Source: an uncultured bacterium
GTDB taxonomy: Bacteria; Hydrothermota; Tepidihabitantia; Tepidihabitantales; Tepidihabitantaceae
DNA length: 64,000 nucleotides
Direction of reading: 5' to 3'
NCBI GenBank assembly: GCA_964597845.1
Contig: CAZQZR010000003.1
Span: forward strand, 3,427 to 67,426
The notes below the pieces were generated by a model. It saw only the letters and a list, made by a program, of their open reading frames with translations. It searched no databases and was not told the origin of the DNA. The position numbers and the translations under genes were made by a program. Below are positions 24,267-62,714 of the stretch, piece by piece. The first letter of the stretch is position 1. Each line of letters opens with the position of its first letter.

Positions 24267-25721
24267 CTAGTCCTTTCCAGTCTTGATAATCTTCTGGCTA
24301 CGGCCGCTGGTCGGCCCCGGCATGACGTAATAGACGCCAGGCGCGAGCCGACTCACGTCATTGGCACCGGGCGCGAGGTCCAGCACCTTGCGGCCGGCGA
24401 CGTCCAGCAGGGCGGTTTTGGGGACAGTCCCCGTGCGGGGACAGTCCCCGCCAAGGAACAGCACGCCGCGGACGAGGGTCGGGCCGAGCTTGTGGCCTGA
24501 GGCTTGTGGCTTGAAGCTCTCCCCCACCCCGGCCCCGGCCGGTATCCAGACCGGCATCGCCGCTTCGCCAAGCAGGTTCCATTCAAAGAGACACCAACGG
24601 TACGTGGAACTGGTCTCGGCCAGGGGCACGGCATCGGCCCAGGCGTGGACGATGGCTTCGAGGCTGCCCTGGAGCGGGTCGGCGAACAGGCCGCGGACAA
24701 AGCCCTCGACCATCACGAATGACCCGCCCCGCTGGGGATTCTGTCCTGGACCGCCCAGGCCGTAGCGCGAGTTGCTCGCCACGGCCACGCCGCCGCCGTT
24801 CGGGTTCTGCATGAAATACTCGGAAGCGCAGTCCGCGGTGTCGAACTCTCCGGTTGAGCAGCCGACCGTCGTCATGATCGTGTACTTGCCCTGATTGGTA
24901 AACTGCGCCAGTTCCTCGCGGTACATGACGTAACCGTGGTTCATGTAGCCCATGCCCATGCCGAAGTAGTTGCAGTGGTCGGCATGAATCCAGATGTGCT
25001 GGCCCTGGTTAACGAGGTTCCTGACCGCGGTCTCATGGTTGCCGGTGTAGCTGTCGTAGACTCTGGCGCACGGTTTCATGCCGGAGGAGACATAGGCCGA
25101 GTCGTAGAGCTCCATCGTCGTCTCGCAGTAGACCCCGTCGAAGATGTCGAAACCGGAGAGCAGCACGTTGCGCAGGTACGGAGCGTCGGGGTCGGCGGTG
25201 TAGGCAAGGAACTTGCTGACGAACAGGTCCGCACCGGCGGTCGTGGTCGCGGGCACGCGGCCGACGAAGACGTCCGGGTACATGTCGCAGGAGTCCTCGG
25301 GTTCGCCGAACAGCCCGTTCCCGTTGGCATCCCATGTGCCGTCAAGGTCGGAGTAGTAGAGGTCGGCCGGGATGGAATCGAGCAGTATCGGATTGTAGCC
25401 GGTAGCATCGACCCAGGCGCGACGGCAGGGCACGATTTCCACGTCGCCGCCCAGCAGCACGTGGGTCGTGCCCCAGTTGGAGTATGCATACCTGATGAAG
25501 TTGCGAATCTTCTCCGGGTTGTCCCGACCGGAGTAGGAGGCGTATATCGCTGCGGTCGTCACGACCGTGTCGTTCAACCCCAGGGTGCCCGCAACGTAGC
25601 CGCAGAGCGTCGTGAAGTGCGACACGAAGGAATCGCACGTTATCACGACGTGCGGATACTCCTGGCCCGCGGCCGGCATCGCCGCGAGCATCAGCACGAA
25701 GAGCAGAGTCACTCGCTTCAA
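24267..25721 (-). CDS. gingipain-like cysteine peptidase (C25) lacking a propeptide, with T9SS-type sorting domain
   Basis: 484 aa. The signal peptide leads directly into the catalytic domain (VLLGGDVEIVPCRR, LYYSDLDGTWDANGNG, HADHCNYFGMG, TTVGCSTGEF). The sorting domain contains the 30-nt palindromic element. Confidence 0.8.
   Translation of the reverse strand: MKRVTLLFVLMLAAMPAAGQEYPHVVITCDSFVSHFTTLCGYVAGTLGLNDTVVTTAAIYASYSGRDNPEKIRNFIRYAYSNWGTTHVLLGGDVEIVPCRRAWVDATGYNPILLDSIPADLYYSDLDGTWDANGNGLFGEPEDSCDMYPDVFVGRVPATTTAGADLFVSKFLAYTADPDAPYLRNVLLSGFDIFDGVYCETTMELYDSAYVSSGMKPCARVYDSYTGNHETAVRNLVNQGQHIWIHADHCNYFGMGMGYMNHGYVMYREELAQFTNQGKYTIMTTVGCSTGEFDTADCASEYFMQNPNGGGVAVASNSRYGLGGPGQNPQRGGSFVMVEGFVRGLFADPLQGSLEAIVHAWADAVPLAETSSTYRWCLFEWNLLGEAAMPVWIPAGAGVGESFKPQASGHKLGPTLVRGVLFLGGDCPRTGTVPKTALLDVAGRKVLDLAPGANDVSRLAPGVYYVMPGPTSGRSQKIIKTGKD
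24420..24449 (-). repeat. double-palindrome element, in-frame in a C25 peptidase sorting domain
   Basis: GGGGACAGTCCCC-GTGC-GGGGACAGTCCCC, translated (minus strand) as GDCPRTGTVP(K). Confidence 0.9.
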
Positions 25722-25730
25722 CCTATCCTC

Positions 25731-27155
25731 CTAGTCCAGTATCACAACTCTCGCCGTCCCGCGGTCGGTCGGCGAACTCACGAAGTAGACTCCGGGCGCG
25801 AGGCGACGCACGTCGTTCGCGCCGGGATGAAGGTCGAGCACCTTGCGGCCGGTGATGTCGAGCAGGCGACCGCTAACCGCCGACCGCCCACCGCTCACCG
25901 CCTCGGGCAGGAAGAGGACGGAACGTAGGACCGTGGGTCGGAGCTTGGGGCTTGCGGCTTGTGGCTTGGAGCGTTCCTCGACCGCGCTGCTCGACGGCAG
26001 CCACACCGGCATCGTCGGCTCGCCCGCGAGCATGAACTCGTAGTGACACCAGCGCCAGACAACGTTCTCCGGAACCAGCGGCGCGGCCTGGGCCTGGCCG
26101 GTGACGAGGCCAGCAAAAGAGCCGTTGCCCGGACCCTGCCAGAAGCCCCCCAGCGTCTTCTCGCAGTAGAAGGCGGTACCGGTGCGGAACGGGTCCGGGC
26201 TTGTGCCCCACGTCAGGCGGGTGCTGCCGAAGGTCGCGACGCAGCCGCCGGCGGGCACGGTCAGCAGGACCTCGGCGACGCAGTAGCCGGAATCGAATGC
26301 CGAAACCATGCAGCCGGCCGCGACGTTGATGGTGTAGTCAGGGGCGTTGGTCATGTCGTCGAGCTCGCTCCACAACATGAACCAGTTGTGATTCAACCAG
26401 CCGGCGCCCATTATGTTGTAGGAGCAGTGGTCCTGGTGGAGCCAGATGTGCATGCCTTGGTTGAGCCGGAGCTTGACCGAGTCTTCGTGGTTGCCGGAGT
26501 GGCTGTCGTAGACCTTGAATGAATGCATCGAAGGCGGCCGGAGCAGGGTGTCGTACAGCTCGCAGACGTCTTCGCCGTGGTACTCGGACGTGGCATCGAA
26601 CCCGGCAAACAGCACGTTCTCGAGATACGGCTTCGTCGAGTCGCCCGTATAGACGACGTAGCGGTCGGCAAACGCCTCCATCTCGGCGGGCGTCGCGAGC
26701 GGAAGGCGTCCGAGAAAGACGTCGGGAATCAGGTCAACCGAGTCCTCCGCCTCGCCGAACTGGCCGTCGCCGTCCCCGTCCCAGTCGCCATCCAGCGCCG
26801 AGTAGTAAAGCTCGGTCGGAATCGAGTCCTTGTACTCTGGGGTGAGTTCGACCCAGCAGCGCCGGCAGGGAATCTGCTCGTTGTCGCCGGCCAAGAGGAC
26901 GTACGTCGTGCCCCATTCTGAGTACGCCCGCTTGATGAAGTTGCGAATCTTCTCCTGGTCGTCGCGCCCGGACGATGACGCGAGCACGTCCGAGACCGAC
27001 ACGGTCGTGTCGCTGAATCCACGGGACTGGACGCGGGCGCAGAGCGGGGCGAGCGCAGCCGCGAGAGAGTCCGGCACAATTGTCAGGTGGTCGTACTGCG
27101 CCGCGACAGGTGCGGCAAGTACGGCGACAAGCAGCAGGCAGCTCAGACGGTTCAT
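25731..27155 (-). CDS. gingipain-like cysteine peptidase (C25) paralog with T9SS-type sorting domain
   Basis: 474 aa. VLLAGDNEQIPCRR, LYYSALDGDWDGDGDG, HQDHCSY, AAGCMVSAF. At the position where its neighbours carry the palindrome, the sorting domain carries an (ACCGCNG)n word. Confidence 0.8.
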   Translation of the reverse strand: MNRLSCLLLVAVLAAPVAAQYDHLTIVPDSLAAALAPLCARVQSRGFSDTTVSVSDVLASSSGRDDQEKIRNFIKRAYSEWGTTYVLLAGDNEQIPCRRCWVELTPEYKDSIPTELYYSALDGDWDGDGDGQFGEAEDSVDLIPDVFLGRLPLATPAEMEAFADRYVVYTGDSTKPYLENVLFAGFDATSEYHGEDVCELYDTLLRPPSMHSFKVYDSHSGNHEDSVKLRLNQGMHIWLHQDHCSYNIMGAGWLNHNWFMLWSELDDMTNAPDYTINVAAGCMVSAFDSGYCVAEVLLTVPAGGCVATFGSTRLTWGTSPDPFRTGTAFYCEKTLGGFWQGPGNGSFAGLVTGQAQAAPLVPENVVWRWCHYEFMLAGEPTMPVWLPSSSAVEERSKPQAASPKLRPTVLRSVLFLPEAVSGGRSAVSGRLLDITGRKVLDLHPGANDVRRLAPGVYFVSSPTDRGTARVVILD

Positions 27156-27164
27156 CGCGACATT

Positions 27165-28652
27165 CTAGCGGACGACCGCGACGCGAGCAAATGCGCCCGG
27201 TTCGATACCGCGCACGAAGTAGATGCCCGGCGCGAGATGACGCACGTCGTTGGCGCCGGGACGCAGGTCAAGCACCTCTCGCCCGCTGATGTCCAGCAGG
27301 GCGGCTTTGGGGACAGTCCCCGTGCGGGGACTGTCCCCGTTCAGGAACAGCGCACCGCGCACGACGGTGGGCATGCTATACTCCGCTCTCGCCCTGCCGG
27401 CGCCCGCTTCGCTCACCGCCGTGAACGGAAGAAGCAACGTGGCGGAGACGGTGTCGCCGTTGTCCGGAATCGAAAGCGGCATCTCGGTCGAGGAGCCCTG
27501 CGTCTGCCACCCCAGGTGTTTGACCTCGAACAGGTCGACGGAGCCGGTGCGGCCATCGGCCGTGTCGTCCAGGCAGGCGAGGTAGAGCGTGTCCTCTTCG
27601 CCGGTCAGCCACGGCGCGCCGTCGGTCAGGTCGAACGGGATACGCCGGTATGGGAACGGATGGTCGGTGACTGCGGCCCGCCACGACCGGAAGTCCTCGT
27701 GCCACAGGCTGCTCTCCGGCGTGCCGACGCCGAACCGGATTCCGACGCGGTCGCGGGTCGGGTGGCTGAACCGGACCGTGCCGATGAGCACCGGCTGGTA
27801 GTCGATCCGGTCAGTCACGTAGGCGGCGTAGGCGTAGACAATCCGTGTGTCCGCAGTCGCCTGGTAGGACATCCAGAAGTAGCCGCTGTCGCCCCAGGCC
27901 GTGCCCATCGAGTTGACGAGCCGGAACGCACCCGACCCGTCACGCGTGCCCATCGTGTCATCATACCCGACGATGGTCACCGCGTGCCCCGAAATCGGGC
28001 TGCCCTGCATGTCGGCCAGGGTGTAGGTGTTATTATAGTCGCTGATGTGCCAGAAATTGTCGTAGATGACGATGCCGGTGACACAGGTATTGCCGTTGGC
28101 GATGTGCTGGCGGATGAGGTTGACGAAGTTGGGGTCGTTGACGTCGAACCAGAACGCGCTGTCGGTCCGGAACATCATTGCGTTCAGGTACGCCTGCTCG
28201 GTCGGCCAGGTCAGATAGTCAAGGGTATCATATGGACAGTCGGCCATCGTGCCACAGCCCTGCTCGCACATCAGCGCCATCGCTCGGCTGAAAGTGGAAC
28301 TCCCGTTCGTCCCGCGGTTGATCTGGTTGTAGATGAATGCCGGGGCGCCCTGGTGGCTCGGATCGGTGAGGTCCCAGCCCCGTTCGCTGAACTCAAGCTG
28401 GGTCCGGTGGTAATAGCCGAACGCCCATGCGGTGCAGCAGTTCTGCCAGTGCTGGTTGCCGACCGGCGGCATCTCGTGCGACAGGTCGACATAGAGCACC
28501 GTGTCCGCGCACGGCCTCCCCGCCGCGACCGGAACCTCGGTCACCCTGTGAACCCACGGAATGGTATGCATGTCTTCACGGATGACGCCGCCGCAGCCAG
28601 GCGGCGCGACCTGCGCAATAACTACCAGCAGCACGGAGGCAAGAACCGGCAT
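27165..28652 (-). CDS. papain-like cysteine peptidase (C1) with T9SS-type sorting domain
   Basis: 495 aa. GNQHWQNCCTAWAFG (Gln/Cys), SGHAVTIVGYDD (His), NSMGTAWGDSGYFW (Asn/Trp). The sorting domain contains the palindromic element. Confidence 0.85.
   Translation of the reverse strand: MPVLASVLLVVIAQVAPPGCGGVIREDMHTIPWVHRVTEVPVAAGRPCADTVLYVDLSHEMPPVGNQHWQNCCTAWAFGYYHRTQLEFSERGWDLTDPSHQGAPAFIYNQINRGTNGSSTFSRAMALMCEQGCGTMADCPYDTLDYLTWPTEQAYLNAMMFRTDSAFWFDVNDPNFVNLIRQHIANGNTCVTGIVIYDNFWHISDYNNTYTLADMQGSPISGHAVTIVGYDDTMGTRDGSGAFRLVNSMGTAWGDSGYFWMSYQATADTRIVYAYAAYVTDRIDYQPVLIGTVRFSHPTRDRVGIRFGVGTPESSLWHEDFRSWRAAVTDHPFPYRRIPFDLTDGAPWLTGEEDTLYLACLDDTADGRTGSVDLFEVKHLGWQTQGSSTEMPLSIPDNGDTVSATLLLPFTAVSEAGAGRARAEYSMPTVVRGALFLNGDSPRTGTVPKAALLDISGREVLDLRPGANDVRHLAPGIYFVRGIEPGAFARVAVVR
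27309..27338 (-). repeat. double-palindrome element, in-frame in the C1 peptidase sorting domain
   Basis: GGGGACAGTCCCC-GTGC-GGGGACTGTCCCC, translated as GDSPRTGTVP(K). Confidence 0.9.
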
Positions 28653-28655
28653 GCG

Positions 28656-30533
28656 CTACTTCGTAATCACGATGCGGCTGGCCCCGGACCACGCATCTGT
28701 CTGCGTGCGCACGAAGTACACGCCGGGTGCGAGGCGACGCACGTCGTTCGGACCGGGATGCAGGTCGAGCACCTCTCGCCCGCTGATGTCGAGGAGCACG
28801 GTTTTGGGGACAGTCCCCGTGCGGGGACAGTCCCCGTTCAGGAACAGCACACGGCCAATGACCGTGGCGCGCGGCCCGGCCGGTCCGAGCGGGCCAGCGC
28901 TTTCCTCAGCGAGGCCGACCACGTCGTCGCCGAGCACGACGGTGAATGCAACCGGCATCATGATGGTGTTGCCAGCATCGGTGAAGGTCACCTCAAGCCG
29001 GAGCGGAATGGTATCTCCCGGCTGCCCCAGGTCGGACGCCCGAACCAGGAACTGGTCGGCCCGGTTGTCGACGTCGCTCAGGCGACCGACGCCCGGGAAC
29101 GACTTGACCGAGTCCAACACCGTGACGAGCGTATCGAGCGACACCAGCCTTGCGCTGATGCTGTATGCCGAGTCGAGCGGGTGTATGGCCCGGTTCCGAA
29201 TGGTGAACCAGACACGCGCGGTCTCGCCGGGGTCGAGCCGGCCCGACGAGTTGCCCGACCCCGTATCGTTGACCGTGCTCGCCACTGGGTCGAAGTACAC
29301 GCCGGCGATGCGGGCCAGGTAGTAGAGGGTCGGGACGTCTCCGTCAACTTCCTTGCGCATGAGCGCGGAGTCGTTCCAGCAGGCGTAGAACCACGTGTCT
29401 GCTTCGATCGTGAACGCGTAGGTGACGAACTTGCCCCCGGAATCGGATAGCCCCCAGTCAATCTGGATGCCGTTACAGAGGTAGAGGACGTTCGAGGCCT
29501 GGCCGGTCCTCGCGTAGTCGTAGTCGTTGTACATCTGGAACGTGTCAACCACCTCCTGGAGCAGGGCCTGTTCCGGGGGCGAGGAGTAGGTATACCCCCA
29601 CGGGTAGCAGTTGTACCCGCCGAAGCAGTGGAAGTCCTGCTCGGTGCGGAACCGGTGTGCGGCCTCCAGGTCGCGGGCCGCAGTGGCTTCCGCGTCGCTC
29701 CAGGCATAGGGACCACGGTAGGCGTGCGACGAGGGGTTGGGGGATGAACCAACGTTGTCGTAGCCCCACTTGTAGCCGTGGTTGCGGGACGGGTCCACGC
29801 CGATGTTCGGGGGCACGACGACGCGGCGGTTCTTGCGCCAGTAGACGCCCGCGCCGCCCGAGTCCGAGCAGAAAACAGAACAGTCCGGGTTGAGTATCGG
29901 TACCGTATAGATTTCGCGGTTGTTAACCAGCCAGGTGGACAACGGGTCGGTTCCGTAGCCGGACAGAATCTGTTGCAGGAAAGCCATGACAATGGACGTA
30001 CCCATCGGCTCGTCGCCGTGAGTCGAGCCGGAGAAGTAACAGGCCGGCTCGTCCTCCTCCACCGATGCGTTGTCCGATATCTTGAGGCACAGAATGTCGC
30101 GGTTCTGGCTGGTAGTCCCGATGACGAAAAGGCTGCAGATTTCCGGGTACCTGGCCGCGAAGGCGATGACCGAATCCGTCATCTCCCAGTAGGTGTAGTA
30201 GTAGCCGAAGTCCTGGAGGGTCGGCGGCTGGTCCGGGTCTACGCCGGTGAACAGCTGGAACTTCTCGTCGAGGTTGGCCCATGTAACTGCGGTCTCGAGC
30301 CCGCAGTCCCGGATGCGGGCAAGCTGCTCCGCGTCGGTGACAAGGACCAGGTACGTGCCGTTCTCGTCCGTGCCATGAGAACAGATGTAGAGGTCCCCGG
30401 CAAGGTCACCGAGCCGGTCGAGGTCACGGGCGTCGTTGACGTACAGCCTTGCCTCAATGAGCGTCACGGACCGGTCTTGGGCAAACCCGGCTGTCACCAG
30501 GCACACGAGGGCAAGTAGCATCATCCGGTACAT
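28656..30533 (-). CDS. M14 zinc carboxypeptidase with T9SS-type sorting domain
   Basis: 625 aa. AAGGAG RBS and signal peptide. Zn-binding region FSGSTHGDEPMG. The sorting domain contains the palindromic element. Confidence 0.85.
   Translation of the reverse strand: MYRMMLLALVCLVTAGFAQDRSVTLIEARLYVNDARDLDRLGDLAGDLYICSHGTDENGTYLVLVTDAEQLARIRDCGLETAVTWANLDEKFQLFTGVDPDQPPTLQDFGYYYTYWEMTDSVIAFAARYPEICSLFVIGTTSQNRDILCLKISDNASVEEDEPACYFSGSTHGDEPMGTSIVMAFLQQILSGYGTDPLSTWLVNNREIYTVPILNPDCSVFCSDSGGAGVYWRKNRRVVVPPNIGVDPSRNHGYKWGYDNVGSSPNPSSHAYRGPYAWSDAEATAARDLEAAHRFRTEQDFHCFGGYNCYPWGYTYSSPPEQALLQEVVDTFQMYNDYDYARTGQASNVLYLCNGIQIDWGLSDSGGKFVTYAFTIEADTWFYACWNDSALMRKEVDGDVPTLYYLARIAGVYFDPVASTVNDTGSGNSSGRLDPGETARVWFTIRNRAIHPLDSAYSISARLVSLDTLVTVLDSVKSFPGVGRLSDVDNRADQFLVRASDLGQPGDTIPLRLEVTFTDAGNTIMMPVAFTVVLGDDVVGLAEESAGPLGPAGPRATVIGRVLFLNGDCPRTGTVPKTVLLDISGREVLDLHPGPNDVRRLAPGVYFVRTQTDAWSGASRIVITK
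28806..28835 (-). repeat. double-palindrome element, in-frame in the M14 peptidase sorting domain
   Basis: GGGGACAGTCCCC-GTGC-GGGGACAGTCCCC, translated as GDCPRTGTVP(K). Confidence 0.9.
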
Positions 30534-40792: not shown

Positions 40793-42400
40793 ATGCAACT
40801 CGTCAAGAACGCGCTCGGCCGCATGGTCCCGACCGAGGTCAACGGCAAGCCGGCAATCCCATTCCCCGGAGTAGGTAAGCACCGGCCCACCGGCCGCAAG
40901 GCCTGCCCGCAAATCCCGACCTGCCTTGATTACCCGGAAGACGGCAACAAAGTCGTGGCCGACTTGAGGACCGCGATCGAGAAGGCCGGTATCCGCAACG
41001 GCACGACTCTCTCGACCCACCACCACTTCCGCGACGGCGATACACTCCCACTCCAACTCTTCGACCTCTGCGCCGAAATGGGTCTTAAGGACTTGGTCTG
41101 GTATCCTTCGGCCGCCTTCCCGTGCCACGCGCCGATAACCAAACATCTCGACTCCGGCGTCATCCACCACATCGAAGGCAGCTTAAACGGCCCCTTGGGA
41201 GACTACTGCACCCAGGGCAAGATGCGCGGGCTGGGCGTGCTCCGCTCGCACGGCGGCCGTGCCCAGGCGATTCAGGATGGTGAAATCCACATCGACATCG
41301 CGGTTGTCGCCGCGCCGACTGCCGACCAGTTCGGCAACGCCAACGGGGTCCACGGCGACACGGCCTGCGGCGTGCTCGGCTACGCCCCCGCCGACGTAAC
41401 CTATGCCGACCGGACTATCGTAGTCACCGACAACCTGGTCCCCTTCCCGGCAATCCCCATCCAGCTCTCGGGCACGTACGTCGACATGGTCGTACAGCAG
41501 GACCATATCGGCGACCCAAAGAAAATCGTCTCGGGCACGACCCAGATTACGCGCAGCCCGGACCGGCTCTACATCGCCGAACTGACCGCGAAGTTCATCC
41601 GTGACGCCGGCATCATGCGCGACGGGTTCAGCTTCCAGGCGGGCGCCGGCGGCGTCTCGCTCGCCTTCGCCATCTACCTTGCCGACATGATGAAGCAGAA
41701 CGGGGTCAAAGCAGGCTGGCTCCACGGCGGCTCGACCCGGTACCTCGTGAAGATGCTCGAGGACGGCCTTGCGCCCGCGCTGGTTGACGGGCAGGCATTC
41801 GACGAGGACGCAATCCGCTCCATCGCGGTCAACCGCGGCCACATCTCCACCAGCCCCCTGGTCAGCTACAACTTCCACGCCAAAGGCAACTACATCAACC
41901 TGCTCGACGTGGCCGTGCTCGGCGCGACCGAAGTGGACACGAACTTCAACGCCAACGTCGTCACCCATTCGGACGGCCGCCTGCGCCACGGCATCGGCGG
42001 CTGGCAGAACTGCATGTACGCCCGCTGCACGATACTCTCGGTACCCGCCATGCGCGACCGGATGCCGGTCATCGTTGACGAAGTAACCACGCTCTGCGCC
42101 CCGGGCGAACTTGTAGACGTCATCGTCACCGAGCTCGGAATCGCCATCAACCCCAGACGACAGGACCTGCTCGATGCGGTCAAAGGCAAGGGCCTCCCGG
42201 TCCGGCCCATCGAAGACATCAAGGCCGAGGTCGAGCGCATCTGCGGCAAACCGGCCCGTCAGGCGCGCGAAAACGGGGACTGTCCCGCGCCGAGTTCGAC
42301 GCAGGCGCTCCGGGGGACTGTCCCCAGTTTTCGCCGAGTCGTAGCCGTCGTCAAATGGGTTGACGGCACGGTACTCGACTCGGTGTACCAAGTCAGTTAG
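40793..42400 (+). CDS. citF: citrate lyase alpha subunit (citrate CoA-transferase)
   Basis: 535 aa with the ATG directly after the CitE stop. CitF-like length and N-terminus (NALGRMVPTEVNGK...PF.G). C-terminal region interrupted by a palindromic-element variant. Confidence 0.8.
   Translation: MQLVKNALGRMVPTEVNGKPAIPFPGVGKHRPTGRKACPQIPTCLDYPEDGNKVVADLRTAIEKAGIRNGTTLSTHHHFRDGDTLPLQLFDLCAEMGLKDLVWYPSAAFPCHAPITKHLDSGVIHHIEGSLNGPLGDYCTQGKMRGLGVLRSHGGRAQAIQDGEIHIDIAVVAAPTADQFGNANGVHGDTACGVLGYAPADVTYADRTIVVTDNLVPFPAIPIQLSGTYVDMVVQQDHIGDPKKIVSGTTQITRSPDRLYIAELTAKFIRDAGIMRDGFSFQAGAGGVSLAFAIYLADMMKQNGVKAGWLHGGSTRYLVKMLEDGLAPALVDGQAFDEDAIRSIAVNRGHISTSPLVSYNFHAKGNYINLLDVAVLGATEVDTNFNANVVTHSDGRLRHGIGGWQNCMYARCTILSVPAMRDRMPVIVDEVTTLCAPGELVDVIVTELGIAINPRRQDLLDAVKGKGLPVRPIEDIKAEVERICGKPARQARENGDCPAPSSTQALRGTVPSFRRVVAVVKWVDGTVLDSVYQVS
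42275..42325 (+). repeat. palindromic element variant with expanded spacer, in-frame in citF
   Basis: GGGGACTGTCCC-N26-GGGGACTGTCCCC, flanked by the inverted GCGAAAAC / GTTTTCGC. Translated as GDCPAPSSTQALRGTVP. Confidence 0.8.
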
Positions 42401-57862: not shown

Positions 57863-57933
57863 AGTATCCTCCCGTTAGAATCTATCCTAACCTTCTGAAA
57901 TTGTCAAGGGGTTTCGGCACATGCCTCGCCGGC

Positions 57934-57961
57934 TTGACAACGCAATCTGGCGCTCTAATAT
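57934..57961 (+). promoter_or_regulatory. sigma70-like promoter giving a leaderless glyS mRNA
   Basis: TTGACA-N16-TAATAT, with 7 nt between the -10 hexamer and the ATG at 57969. No Shine-Dalgarno sequence. Confidence 0.5.
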
Positions 57962-57968
57962 CCTCGCG

Positions 57969-60122
57969 ATGAAGCAACTGCTCCTTGAAATCGGTACTGA
58001 AGAAATCCCGGCCTCGTTCCTTAAGCCGGCGGCGCTCGACCTTGAGCGCCGGGTTCGGGCCGCGATTTCGGAAAATGACATACCGGCTGGCGTGTCCGAG
58101 CTCTTCTCGACCCCGCGCCGGCTCGCGCTCCGCCTAAGCGACGTCGCCGACGGCAGGCCTGCCCAGGTCATTGAACTCCAGGGCCCGCCCCGCAAGGCCG
58201 CGTTCGACGCCCAGGACAACCCCACCAGGACCGCGGTCGGATTCAGCGCGGCCCACGGCAAGACCCCGGCGGACCTGTACTTCAAACAGACTCCGCGCGG
58301 CGAATACGTCTTCCTGAAGAAACAGACCGACCCGTTGCCGACCACCAAAGTGCTGCAGGAAAGGCTGCCCGGAATCATCCCCACCCTGCCATTCCCCAAG
58401 AACATGCGCTGGGACGCAAGCGGCCTCAGGTTCGCCCGACCTATCCGCTGGCTCGTCTGCCTGTTTGGCCCGGATGCGGTCGAGTTCACACTCGGCGAAC
58501 TCAAGTCCGGCGCCGACTCCCGCGGGCTCCGCAACTCGAAGCCTTCTCAGTTTCGCGTCCCGAGCCCGGCCGAGTACGAAACCGCGCTAAAGGCGCACGG
58601 CGTCATCGCGTCGCACGACGCCCGGCGCAAGACCATCGCGGCGGACTTGCTTCGCCTGGCCGGCACGGTCAGCGGCCAGCCGGTCGAGGACGACGAACTA
58701 TTGGACGAGACCACGGACATCACCGAATCCCCGGAACTGCTCCTCTGCTCATTCAACCCGGACTACCTCTCCCTGCCCGGCGAAGTACTGGTAACCGCGC
58801 TCAAGAAGCACCAGCGCTGCTTCTCCGTTCAGGGGGACTGTCCCCGCACGGGGACTGTCCCCAAAGCCGCGCCTGCCCTCCTCCCCCGTTTTGTCGCCGT
58901 CACCAATACGCCCGGCTGCGACCACGCAGTGGTGACCGGCTGGTACGAGAGAGCCGCCGAGTCGCGACTGCGCGACGCCCGTTTCTTCGTCGAGTCCGAC
59001 CTGAAACGCGGCCTCGAAGCGCTGGTCGATGAGGAAAAGCAAGTCACGTGGATCGAAGGCATGGGCACCTACTTCGACAAAACCCAGCGCCTGCGCGAAC
59101 TCTGCCGCCACCTGACAGCGCAGACCCCGAACACCGACGCGATCGCGCTGGACCGGGCCGCCCTGCTCTGCAAGGCCGACCTGCTCACAGAGATGGTACG
59201 CGAGAAGGAGTTTACCTCGCTGCAGGGCCGCATCGGTGGCATCTACGCGCGTACCATGGGTGAACCGCCGTCCGTTGCCGACGCGATTGCCGAGCACTAC
59301 CTGCCCCGTTTCACCGGCGACAAGCTGCCGGCGACCCGTGACGGCGCGCTGCTCAGCATTGCCGACAAGCTCGACAACATCGTCGCCACCTTCCTGAGTG
59401 GCGAAATTCCCACCGGCTCCGAAGACCCGTTCGCCCTGCGCCGCCAGGCAACCGGGCTCCTCACCATCGTGCTCAAACAGAACCTGCCGATTGATATCGG
59501 TGAACTGGTCGCGGCCGCGCTCCGGCTCCTCCCCGCAGCGAAGAACGAATACGCGTCCCAGATTCCCGGCCTGTTCCGCGAACGGCTCAATGCCCTTCTC
59601 GCCGAACAGGGAATCCGGTACGACATCGCGGCCGCGGTCATGGAGACCAGTTGGCAGCAGCCGGCCCAGGCTCTGGTCCGGGCCAATGCGCTGGCCGCGT
59701 TCCGCGACGACCCCGAGTTCCTAAGGCTCGTAGTCGGTCAGAAGCGCGTGGCCAACATCCTGAAGGGACAAACCGCCTGGGGACTGTCCCCGCATGGGGA
59801 CTGTCAGGGGACTGTCCCCGAACGGGGACTGTCCCCAAAACTCAAAGAGCGACTTCTCACCGAACCCACCGAGCAGCAACTCTGGACCGAAGCGCAGAAG
59901 GTCGAGCCCGACCTTAACCAAAGCCTTGCCGCGCACGACTACCGGCGCGCCTTCAAGTTACTTCTCGGCCTCCGTCCGACGATAGACAAGTTCTTTGAGG
60001 ACATACTGGTGATGGCCAAGGATGAGAAGGTGCGAGAGAACCGCCTTAGCCTGCTCGGGTACGTCCGCTCCCTATTCGGCAGAGTCGCGGACCTGTCGAA
60101 GATAGTCATTGAAGGAGAATAG
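57969..60122 (+). CDS. glyS: glycine-tRNA ligase beta subunit
   Basis: MKQLLLEIGTEEIPASF..., FSTPRRLA, typical GlyS N-terminus and length apart from two palindromic-element inserts. No glyQ is adjacent. Confidence 0.9.
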   Translation: MKQLLLEIGTEEIPASFLKPAALDLERRVRAAISENDIPAGVSELFSTPRRLALRLSDVADGRPAQVIELQGPPRKAAFDAQDNPTRTAVGFSAAHGKTPADLYFKQTPRGEYVFLKKQTDPLPTTKVLQERLPGIIPTLPFPKNMRWDASGLRFARPIRWLVCLFGPDAVEFTLGELKSGADSRGLRNSKPSQFRVPSPAEYETALKAHGVIASHDARRKTIAADLLRLAGTVSGQPVEDDELLDETTDITESPELLLCSFNPDYLSLPGEVLVTALKKHQRCFSVQGDCPRTGTVPKAAPALLPRFVAVTNTPGCDHAVVTGWYERAAESRLRDARFFVESDLKRGLEALVDEEKQVTWIEGMGTYFDKTQRLRELCRHLTAQTPNTDAIALDRAALLCKADLLTEMVREKEFTSLQGRIGGIYARTMGEPPSVADAIAEHYLPRFTGDKLPATRDGALLSIADKLDNIVATFLSGEIPTGSEDPFALRRQATGLLTIVLKQNLPIDIGELVAAALRLLPAAKNEYASQIPGLFRERLNALLAEQGIRYDIAAAVMETSWQQPAQALVRANALAAFRDDPEFLRLVVGQKRVANILKGQTAWGLSPHGDCQGTVPERGLSPKLKERLLTEPTEQQLWTEAQKVEPDLNQSLAAHDYRRAFKLLLGLRPTIDKFFEDILVMAKDEKVRENRLSLLGYVRSLFGRVADLSKIVIEGE
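58833..58862 (+). repeat. double-palindrome element, in-frame in glyS
   Basis: GGGGACTGTCCCC-GCAC-GGGGACTGTCCCC, translated as GDCPRTGTVP(K). Same orientation and frame relative to the host gene as the three sorting-domain copies. Confidence 0.9.
59779..59836 (+). repeat. tandem/partial copies of the palindromic element, in-frame in glyS
   Basis: GGGGACTGTCCCC-gcat-GGGGACTGTC-a-GGGGACTGTCCCC-gaac-GGGGACTGTCCCC, translated as GLSPHGDCQGTVPERGLSP. Confidence 0.9.
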
Positions 60123-61268: not shown

Positions 61269-62714
61269 CTACTTCTTCACTCCCGCTGCCTCCTGCCGTA
61301 CCGTGTTCATCATCGAGAGCACGCAGGCGATACCCTCCTCATTCAGCCCGACTTCAACGAACAGCTCTTCCATCCGCTTCCGTCCCAGCTTGCCCTCACA
61401 CTTGGTCAGCTCGTTCAGCATCGACCTGGGTCCGTCGGCCGCCCCGATCTTCAGGGACAAACACAGCGCCGCGGCCAACTCCGGCACGGCCTGATCATGC
61501 TTCCCCATGTCCATCAAAATTGTCCCAACGCTGGCAAGGCTGCACGCCACGCCCTGCTGATACCCGATCTCACGGTGAATCGCCAGCGCCTCCTGCAGGT
61601 ACTTCAGAGCCCTGTCGGGCTCGGCTTTGTCGCGGTAGACAAGCCCGATGTTGCCGAGGTCGCTCGCGACGACCCGCTGATACCCGATTTCACGGTCGAT
61701 CGCCAGTCCTTCCTCGAAGCACTCCAGCGCCTTGTCGAGTTCGCCCTTGACGCGGAAGATACTCCCGATGTTGCCGAGCCGGTCCGCCGCGCCCTGCTTG
61801 TGACCGACTTCGCGGTCTATGGCCAGCGCCTCTTTGTAGTACTTGAGCGCCTTGTCGAGTTCGCCCTTGTCGCGGTAGATAAGCCCGATGTTGCCGAGGT
61901 CGCTCGCCACGCCCTGCTGATAATCAATTTCGCGGTCTATCGTGAGCGCTTCCTCATAGCACTTCAGCGCCTTGTCGGATTCACTTTTGTTGCGGTAGAT
62001 AGTCCCGATGTCGCCGAGGTCGCTCGCCACGGCTCGCCGATATCCGATCTTGCGGTGAATCGCCAGCGCTTCCTCGTAGCACTTCAGCGCCTTGTCGGGC
62101 TCGCCCATGTCGTGGTAGATGAGCGCGATTTCGCCGATGTCTGATGCCTCGCCCCGATGATGCCCGATTTCACGGTGAATCGCCAGCGCCGCCTCCATGT
62201 ACTTCAGCGCCTGCTTGGGTCCGCCCTTGTCCCGATGGATGTTCGCCATGTTGACGAGGTTTGTCGCCGCCTCCTCCCGAGACGCGACTTCACGGTCTAT
62301 CGCCAGCGCTTCCTCGTAGCATTTCAGCGCCCTGTCAGGTTCGCCCTTCGTGCCGCAGATGAACCCGATGTCACCGAGGGCCGCGGCCTTCCCCAGCTTG
62401 TCCCCGAACTGCTCTGCCAGCCGGACCGATTCCTCGTAGTTCCTGAGCGCGTCGTCCAGGCGGCCCGGGCGGTAGCAGCACAACCCGATCAGGTTAAACA
62501 GCGCGACGAGCTGCTTCCCCTCGGCCAGCTTTGTCGCTTCCCGGAAGTGGCCAATTGCTTTGTCCCACTTGTTCGCACGCATGGCGGCATGACCAAGGTC
62601 GTACAGTTTTCTGATCGCGGGCTCAGACTCCGGCAGGCCGCCGAGGTATCCCATCAAGCCTCCATCTGGGAGCGCAGACTTGCGGCCCCATTCCACAGAA
62701 CGCCGGAACCGCAA
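61269..62714 (-). CDS. tetratricopeptide-repeat protein
   Basis: 481 aa. About nine 40-aa units of ALK.YEEALAI.REIG...G.A..LGNIG.IYRDKGE.DK. Confidence 0.8.
   Translation of the reverse strand: MRFRRSVEWGRKSALPDGGLMGYLGGLPESEPAIRKLYDLGHAAMRANKWDKAIGHFREATKLAEGKQLVALFNLIGLCCYRPGRLDDALRNYEESVRLAEQFGDKLGKAAALGDIGFICGTKGEPDRALKCYEEALAIDREVASREEAATNLVNMANIHRDKGGPKQALKYMEAALAIHREIGHHRGEASDIGEIALIYHDMGEPDKALKCYEEALAIHRKIGYRRAVASDLGDIGTIYRNKSESDKALKCYEEALTIDREIDYQQGVASDLGNIGLIYRDKGELDKALKYYKEALAIDREVGHKQGAADRLGNIGSIFRVKGELDKALECFEEGLAIDREIGYQRVVASDLGNIGLVYRDKAEPDRALKYLQEALAIHREIGYQQGVACSLASVGTILMDMGKHDQAVPELAAALCLSLKIGAADGPRSMLNELTKCEGKLGRKRMEELFVEVGLNEEGIACVLSMMNTVRQEAAGVKK

Follow-up and report, generated by a model that had tools for sequence, protein, structure and literature searches.

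A 36-nt double-palindrome repeat inserted in-frame in genes of a candidate division WOR-3 bacterium

A 13-nt palindrome recurs in peptidase, glyS, and citF genes

We analyzed a short palindromic repeat in a 64-kb stretch of DNA (the window) from an uncultured bacterium of the Hydrothermota (contig CAZQZR010000003.1). Homologues of the window's glyS product, the glycyl-tRNA synthetase beta subunit (GlyS), are named candidate division WOR-3. An initial annotation had reported a 30-nt double palindrome, two copies of the 13-mer GGGGACWGTCCCC with a 4-nt spacer, at positions 24420, 27309, and 28806, inside three peptidase open reading frames (ORFs) and translated as GD(C/S)PRTGTVPK. All three copies were found there with this translation, but six to seven further units in glyS and citF (citrate lyase alpha) had been overlooked. 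The 13-mer is strongly enriched: the window contains 13 units at ≤1 mismatch versus 0.19 expected, and none of 100 shuffles gave as many. Twelve units are perfect, one has one mismatch, and none has two.

The units lie in-frame in three peptidase C-termini, at two sites of glyS, and in citF. The products of the minus-strand ORFs 24267-25721, 27165-28652, and 28656-30533 match Peptidase_C25, C1, and M14, respectively. The copies are as follows; hot spots are loop sites common to GlyS orthologues, described below.

24414..24449, minus strand: 36-nt element (13-mer, GCAC, 13-mer, AAAACC tail), read in-frame within the C25 peptidase ORF 24267-25721, in the loop of its C-terminal domain; encodes GDCPRTGTVPKT
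27303..27338, minus strand: 36-nt element with tail AAAGCC, in the C1 peptidase ORF 27165-28652; encodes GDSPRTGTVPKA
28800..28835, minus strand: 36-nt element with tail AAAACC, in the M14 peptidase ORF 28656-30533; encodes GDCPRTGTVPKT
58833..58868, plus strand: 36-nt element with tail AAAGCC, in-frame in the glyS ORF 57921-60122 at hot spot 1; encodes GDCPRTGTVPKA
59779..59842, plus strand: array with three full units plus a truncated one (units 59779-59836), glyS hot spot 3; spacers GCAT and GAAC, tail AAAACT
42269..42332, plus strand: long variant with two units (42275 and 42313, to 42325), in-frame near the citF C-terminus, ORF 40793-42400; encodes GDCPAPSSTQALRGTVP

The 30-mer of the first glyS copy (58833-58862) is identical to those of the peptidases and matches them in frame and orientation with respect to its host gene, reading QGDCPRTGTVPKA. 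The glyS array (59779-59836) is read in another frame, as GLSPHGDCQGTVPERGLSPK and WGLSPHGDCQGTVPERGLSPK. In the C1 peptidase copy, one unit has a central A and the other a central T, giving a perfect 13-bp hairpin. In the citF variant, one unit has one mismatch, and the units are 25 nt apart and bear inverted GAAAAC/GTTTTC flanks; its peptide recurs as a GlyS insert in another WOR-3 genome (P0021). A locus of a WOR-3 metagenome-assembled genome (MAG; L057) has the C-terminal domains of the window and also GDSPHSGTVP in-frame in a 1111-aa ORF. No Rfam family matched in the window.

Anatomy of the repeat unit

A metagenome scan for the exact 30-mer with GCAC spacer yielded at least 117 loci, mostly of 61-66% G+C, and array statistics were taken from about 0.8 Mb of this WOR-3-like DNA. 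It contains 177 arrays, 131 of which are doublets, and 133 of 141 spacers are 4 nt long. At the 131 doublets, one flank is strongly conserved as ARDRCC (AAAGCC, AAAACC, AGTGCC; GGYHYT on the other strand), and the opposite flank is variable. Because of this conserved flank, the unit is 36 nt: 13-mer, GCAC, 13-mer, and ARDRCC tail. The initial annotation had proposed a unit of about 45 nt between two conserved flanks. One of these, GGYTTT, is the conserved tail of the element; the other, GTTCAGG, is host sequence that represents host LFLN codons and is not kept at other element sites. No excess of flanking direct repeats was seen at any offset at the WOR-3-like sites, that is, no target-site duplication.

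The predicted fold is a single 13-bp hairpin with a central T.T mismatch, a GCAC loop, and an unpaired tail (-14.1 kcal/mol as DNA, z = -5.2; -26.2 as RNA), not the pair of mini-hairpins first envisaged. The element does lack stop codons in all six frames, as had been noted, but this is not remarkable, as 16-29% of random 36-mers alike in composition are also stop-free. GGGGACWGTCCCC is the AC/GT form among the 16 GGGGNNWNNCCCC palindromes. Outside the elements, the hexamers GGGGAC and GTCCCC, and also GGGAC, occur at about Markov expectation, and restriction-like avoidance was rejected on these counts.

GlyS orthologues have filled, decayed, and empty sites

We compared 60 GlyS orthologues, with a base length of about 690 aa. 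Protein and DNA alignments revealed three hot spots common to the orthologues, where palindrome-encoded peptides may be intact, decayed, or missing. An element fills hot spot 1 in the window; in locus L126 this site has decayed (GGGGACTGCACCC, spacer AAAC), and in L127 and L129 it is empty. At hot spot 2, the window has no element, L126 and L129 have a doublet, and L127 has another hairpin element. At hot spot 3, the number of units is 0, 2, 3.7, or 4, and the empty form reads GGGACTGCC, which has 7 bases in common with the unit. The inserts fall on alignment gaps relative to the solved glycyl-tRNA synthetase 7LU4. In the GlyS tree, the deeper relatives (≤66% identity) are all empty at all three sites, and the clade of ≥74% identity is a mosaic of patchy filling, which points to repeated gain and loss. 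Copies stay perfect in orthologues of only 75-84% identity.

This variation in occupancy at three loop hot spots, seen in GlyS orthologues that include close WOR-3 relatives, identifies the repeat as an inserted element and not a domain segment. This idea, already put forward in the initial annotation, is upheld also by the unrelated host genes and by a core identity that exceeds that of the flanks. A 30-aa length difference in the lipoamide dehydrogenase of L126 was considered as a further insertion and rejected as a matter of start-codon calling.

GlyS hot spots of the 13-mer are also occupied by in-frame hairpin inserts of another family, GGGACATGACCGG...TCGGATCGTGTCCC, translated as RDMT...DRVP. 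It lies at about 11200-11260 of L127 (hot spot 2) and also in the GlyS proteins P0007, P0012, P0022, P0023, P0032, P0035, and P0046; GGGAC/GTCCC ends are common to it and the 13-mer. At about 11670-11700 of L126, glyS carries a 27-nt insert, GCACTGTCCGACAGGGGCCGCCGAGGCC, which is confined to the L126 orthologue and contains the palindrome CTGTC-C-GACAG.

The element does not avoid genes

Coding calls were made with a codon model trained on Pfam-supported genes of the WOR-3 lineage. Among non-redundant WOR-3-like sites, 89 of 117 were called coding, in both orientations and all six frames. With duplicate contexts kept, the fraction was 93 of 124 (75%), compared with 75.7% for random positions in the same loci. 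The element thus does not avoid genes in WOR-3-like DNA. The 30-mer is found in about 60 unrelated coding contexts, and many metagenome copies lie in the loop of the peptidase C-terminal domain (CTD). The most frequent encoded peptides are GDCPRTGTVP (28), GDSPRAGTVP (18), GTVPVRGQSP (15), GTVPARGLSP (13), and GLSPHGDCPQ (7), followed by minor forms.

Neighboring arrays on one contig have the same orientation with respect to the DNA strand in 42 of 49 pairs. Strand orientation is also equal in 17 of 21 pairs located in different genes, including six of the eight whose host genes face opposite ways. This sharing of orientation fits the strand-specific insertion known for HUH Y1 enzymes.

In peptidases the repeat replaces loop sequence

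The peptidase CTDs had been labeled as sorting domains of the type IX secretion system (T9SS). One sub-threshold match to TIGR04183, in the M14 protein (16.3 bits versus a cut-off of 23), backs this label; the other proteins had no match. In five related CTDs of the window, the loops are 13-14 aa long with or without the palindrome. The palindrome had been taken as a net insertion, but the loops that carry it are equal in length (14 aa) to that of the paralogue 25731-27155, and in peptidases the repeat replaces sequence with no net addition. Loops of equal length make the paralogous CTDs a weak argument for insertion.

CTDs with flanks of only 64-76% identity carry 30-mers that are 97-100% identical; by their flanks, the palindrome-bearing domains neither form a clade nor are mutual closest relatives. 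These observations exclude ordinary divergence of a duplicated segment. In a CTD of the WOR-3 MAG, the loop retains a pair of GGGGAC motifs at a distance of 17 nt and resembles a doublet that has decayed. The palindrome-less CTD loops of the window (25867-25902 and 312-342) contain a run of about five GCGGTNN heptamers encoding AVSGGRSAVSG, and the CTD loop seems to be generally built of short repeats.

The same doublet in other phyla

We scanned one genome per species for two units ≤30 nt apart and obtained at least 120 loci from very many phyla. Genic location was assessed where G+C is below 55%, since ORF length carries information in such loci: of 48 matches, 24 lie in ORFs ≥150 aa versus 41 expected, so about half of the matches in these loci are intergenic. 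MiaB of an Omnitrophota genome has three in-frame doublets, at gaps relative to the solved MiaB 7MJZ. In-frame doublets also occur in a Patescibacteria ORF resembling methionyl-tRNA synthetase and in a Saccharibacteria ORF resembling a class I aminoacyl-tRNA synthetase, both putative identities based on conserved motifs. When oriented by the central T, all six 4-nt spacers, from six phylum-level taxa, are GAAC, GAAT, or GCAC (GMAY). This shared spacer argues for common descent of the doublet across phyla rather than convergence.

Two other sets of palindromes came up in the scans. The IMG/VR contig GVMAG-S-404869-41, labeled as a giant-virus MAG (L296, L365, L371, L374, L376, L378), has at least seven GGGGTCWGACCCC doublets. 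Low-G+C Bacillaceae (L049, L095, L105, and L106; Lederbergia, Bacillus salacetis, Neobacillus, and Niallia) have many GGGGGACWGTCCCCC copies by ...TAACGCG-like flanks, with six units in 8 kb of L049; these repeats look like a distinct family on a common core.

The palindrome flanks Y1 transposase genes

In a Planctomycetota locus (L074), a 202-aa ORF matches Y1_Tnp (E = 3e-15) and has units about 25-200 nt away on both sides. Y1_Tnp homologues with HUH and Y---NP motifs and with the 13-mer on both sides were also found in Eubacterium (L063) and in another Planctomycetota locus (L113). All three matches are above the Pfam cut-off (E of 1e-13 to 3e-15). Further homologues lie within L016, L019, and L116. 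Altogether, Y1_Tnp homologues are present in 6 of the at least 120 loci, which were selected by DNA pattern alone, versus 0 of 250 others (133 viral and 117 WOR-3-like).

RAYT-like genes (RAYT, tyrosine transposase associated with repetitive extragenic palindromic [REP] elements) lying between inverted repeats with GGGGWSAS (GGGG[AT][CG]A[CG]) are known as TIRYT, TnpA-Y1 subclass 2.1, or RAYT group 1 (PMC3733652, PMC6006769, PMC5581495). Several phyla have these repeats as dimers or clusters (PMC3733652, PMC6006769). Of the RAYT groups, group 1 is the one with the broadest range of hosts; it bears some traces of horizontal transfer, and few 16-mers in its flanks were found repeated (PMC5581495). 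Our repeat fits this motif, since GGGGACAG reads G-G-G-G-W(A)-S(C)-A-S(G), and the 13-mer amounts to two overlapping inverted GGGGWSAS end motifs. The enzymes have NHYH, NHFH, NHIH, or NHVH; YVDQNP, YVERNP, YIHYNP, or YDELNP; and WSS, which fit NH[VYF]H, Y---NP, and SS of subclass 2.1 (Table 1 of PMC6006769).

The initial annotation had likened the repeat to Rickettsia palindromic elements (RPEs) rather than to REPs or bacterial interspersed mosaic elements. The likeness to RPEs is confined to location. The contrast in mechanism is unsupported: the 13-mer flanks RAYT-like Y1_Tnp genes in other phyla and fits GGGGWSAS.

A Xanthomonadales RAYT (L380-L382) has REPIN-like GGGGACATTCTGG...CCAGAATGTCCCC hairpins (REPIN, REP doublet forming a hairpin) on the downstream side of its Y1_Tnp gene. 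These hairpins belong to another repeat that has the same GGGGAC/GTCCCC ends.

Favored explanation and its rivals

Taking together the observed repetition, in-frame location in all six frames, presence or absence among orthologues, lack of target duplication, predicted hairpin, and 13-mer-flanked RAYT genes in other phyla, we consider that the repeat is probably a mobile palindromic element of the REP/REPIN kind, miniature in size and non-autonomous. A RAYT-like enzyme acting in trans would work on single-stranded DNA, probably at replication forks, where it would recognize the hairpin and tail, cut the module, and rejoin it at new sites without target duplication. Slippage or recombination between 17-nt units would then alter the copy number of arrays. 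As the module is short (36 nt) and stop-free, copies in surface loops of proteins could survive selection and build up inside genes. For the WOR-3 copies, we infer the action of a RAYT, a single-strand cut-and-paste or copy mechanism, and a role of the tail.

A wider reading is that the GGGGACWGTCCCC doublet is a single, horizontally spreading substrate of RAYT group 1 in many phyla (WOR-3, Omnitrophota, Patescibacteria/Saccharibacteria, Planctomycetota, Armatimonadota, and others), which inserts regardless of coding sequence and whose copies are kept perfect by continuing enzyme-dependent turnover. We put this forward tentatively, with more doubt than confidence.

Several results weigh against the favored explanation. 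Filled and empty GlyS sites differ by +27, +18, and +12 nt with no clean +36, which implies loop trimming after insertion or partial templated replacement, and the length of the window CTD loops is unchanged by the repeat. The orientation test comprises few, perhaps non-independent pairs, and the window copies switch orientation with gene direction. No Y1_Tnp gene was present in the window, in syntenic loci, or in the approximately 0.8 Mb of WOR-3-like contigs. A regular-expression screen for HUH...Y motifs and tblastn with four RAYTs likewise detected no RAYT in WOR-3-like DNA, although a single-copy gene is easily missed in a sample of such size. A C-terminal helix-turn-helix (HTH) domain is described for subclass 2.1 (PMC6006769), but Bac_DnaA_C, HTH_23, and HTH_28 gave no Pfam match at E ≤1 in the RAYTs found; the published profiles differ from these. 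Three further RAYTs of the same protein family (P0171, P0140, P0180) have different repeats at their flanks (GGGGACATTCT..., GGGGACGGGCAC, and GGGGTCAGGC), so that the 13-mer is specific to part of this RAYT family, other members of which have differing GGGGAC... or GGGGTC... flanks. Finally, control scans of viral contigs gave 14 loci for GGGGTCWGACCCC versus 4 for GGGGACWGTCCCC, so that other G4..C4 palindrome doublets exist; the counts for the palindromes tried (4, 0, 14, 0) are too low to tell if the 13-mer is special.

Spread could also have occurred without a dedicated transposase, if breaks or stalled forks in genes were mended from ectopic copies by microhomology and slippage resized the arrays. 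This would accommodate the variable net length change at filled sites (+12 to +54 nt), where native residues are replaced and not displaced, as well as the constant CTD loops, the 7 bases of the unit already present in the empty hot spot 3 (GGGACTGCC), and the 0 to 4 units at one array site. It leaves unexplained the 13-mer beside Y1_Tnp genes in several phyla, the asymmetric tail conserved at 131 sites, and the GMAY spacer shared across phyla, and we regard it as rather unlikely on its own. Microhomology repair and slippage may nevertheless operate alongside transposition.

It is improbable that the repeat is a motif held by selection or molecular drive, such as a DNA uptake sequence or a chromosome-organizer site, that arose by point mutation and recombination. 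Such a motif would suit the 12 perfect units, the single unit with one mismatch, and the absence of units with two in the window, as well as copies that stay perfect in orthologues 75-84% identical and neighbors alike in strand orientation. Filled and empty sites, however, differ in length and not by substitutions, and the entire 36-nt module is copied with its spacer and tail. The motif also occurs in unrelated phyla, unlike a species-specific uptake signal, and GGGGAC and GTCCCC outside the elements are near their expected frequency.

Derivation from a DDE-type insertion sequence with terminal inverted repeats starting GGGGAC, as a miniature inverted-repeat transposable element, is very improbable. 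Two abutting inverted repeats of 6-8 nt are one way to read the 13-mer, and longer variants with internal sequence exist (window 42269-42332; GlyS site 2 of L127, GGGACATGACCGG...TCGGATCGTGTCCC), but there is no target-site duplication at any offset, the sole transposase genes found beside the repeat are Y1 HUH genes, and usual DDE terminal repeats are far longer than the ends here.

That the repeat is a conserved segment of a T9SS-type CTD inherited by gene duplication is hardly credible: loop position and length are equal in the five window CTDs and many metagenome copies lie in this loop, yet as a full explanation it is refuted by the 30-mer in glyS, citF, and about 60 unrelated coding contexts and by the contrast between core (97-100%) and flanks (64-76%) in bearers that are not a flank clade, although some of the spread among CTDs may be due to duplication or gene conversion.

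Relation to known repeats and significance

The closest parallels to the probable mobile element lie in four groups of repeats. The terminal inverted repeat (TIR) sequences of TIRtrons (TIRYT; Di Nocera 2013, PMC3733652; Quentin 2018, PMC6006769; Bertels 2017, PMC5581495) have the motif that GGGGACAG fits, flank Y1_Tnp genes as in L074, L063, and L113, form dimers and clusters, are in some cases self-complementary, and are widely but patchily distributed among phyla. The published families are moderately abundant, whereas here a 13-nt self-complementary unit is abundant and lies mostly inside genes. The RAYTs here, in which no HTH domain was detected, are candidate members of the TIRYT subclass.

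With REP/REPIN-RAYT systems of Proteobacteria, the repeat shares a doublet hairpin with a stem mismatch, a short conserved single-stranded neighbor, lack of target duplication, many perfect copies, and, under the proposed mechanism, a putative single-copy enzyme that would act in trans. It differs in that the conserved flank is ARDRCC and there is no GTAG or CGTC tag, and in that it is not extragenic, with 75% of copies in coding sequence as at random positions. Known REPINs are also much longer than the 36-nt element.

Intragenic REPs have been described for Opitutus terrae and other species, and intragenic CGTC repeats of Rickettsia conorii correspond to RPE-4 and RPE-6 (Di Nocera 2013, PMC3733652). 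Like these, our repeat lies in-frame in unrelated, often housekeeping genes, is translated as extra loop residues, is present or absent among orthologues, and encodes short peptides in its dimers. Sequence family, host phyla, and the 36-nt size differ from RPEs, so that the resemblance is behavioral only, and a transposase association is visible for the 13-mer family in other phyla. RPE-1 is about 100-150 nt long. Cyanobacterial small dispersed repeats, together with the fungal mitochondrial GC clusters and double-hairpin elements, are very small mobile palindromes that can lie inside coding sequences. They differ from the present repeat in sequence and hosts, and we know of no enzyme for them.

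A literature search for the 13-mer and its encoded peptides returned nothing relevant. Intragenic REPs, Rickettsia RPEs, and GGGGWSAS repeats beside tyrosine transposases are already known. The 13-nt unit and 36-nt module, their abundance and lack of gene avoidance in WOR-3, and their presence in essential genes of several candidate phyla appear to be new.

The repeat brings a previously undescribed 36-nt sequence to the least understood RAYT group (group 1/TIRYT), whose repeats were deemed sparse, and in a candidate phylum it fills coding and non-coding sequence with equal freedom. Tail included, the 36-mer offers a concrete substrate for the biochemistry of group-1 RAYTs. For practical work, the repeats make lineage-specific insertions in phylogenomic marker proteins, their recurring peptides (GTVP, GDCP, GLSP, GDSP, GQSP) may mislead annotation, and they may break assemblies, as many RAYT-bearing contigs are just 1-2 kb. 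If the doublet is indeed a shared substrate across phyla, it would be a major unrecognized source of insertions in the loops of essential proteins in uncultivated bacteria, such as aminoacyl-tRNA synthetases and tRNA-modifying enzymes.

Other repeats in the window

The motif GCTTGTGGC (KPQA on the coding strand) lies at 24488-24516, just upstream of the CTDs, and recurs at the C-terminus of ORF 157-1620. Seven 120-nt tandem units (73% matches) occupy 61545-62379 inside the minus-strand ORF 61269-62714 and probably encode a 40-residue protein repeat.

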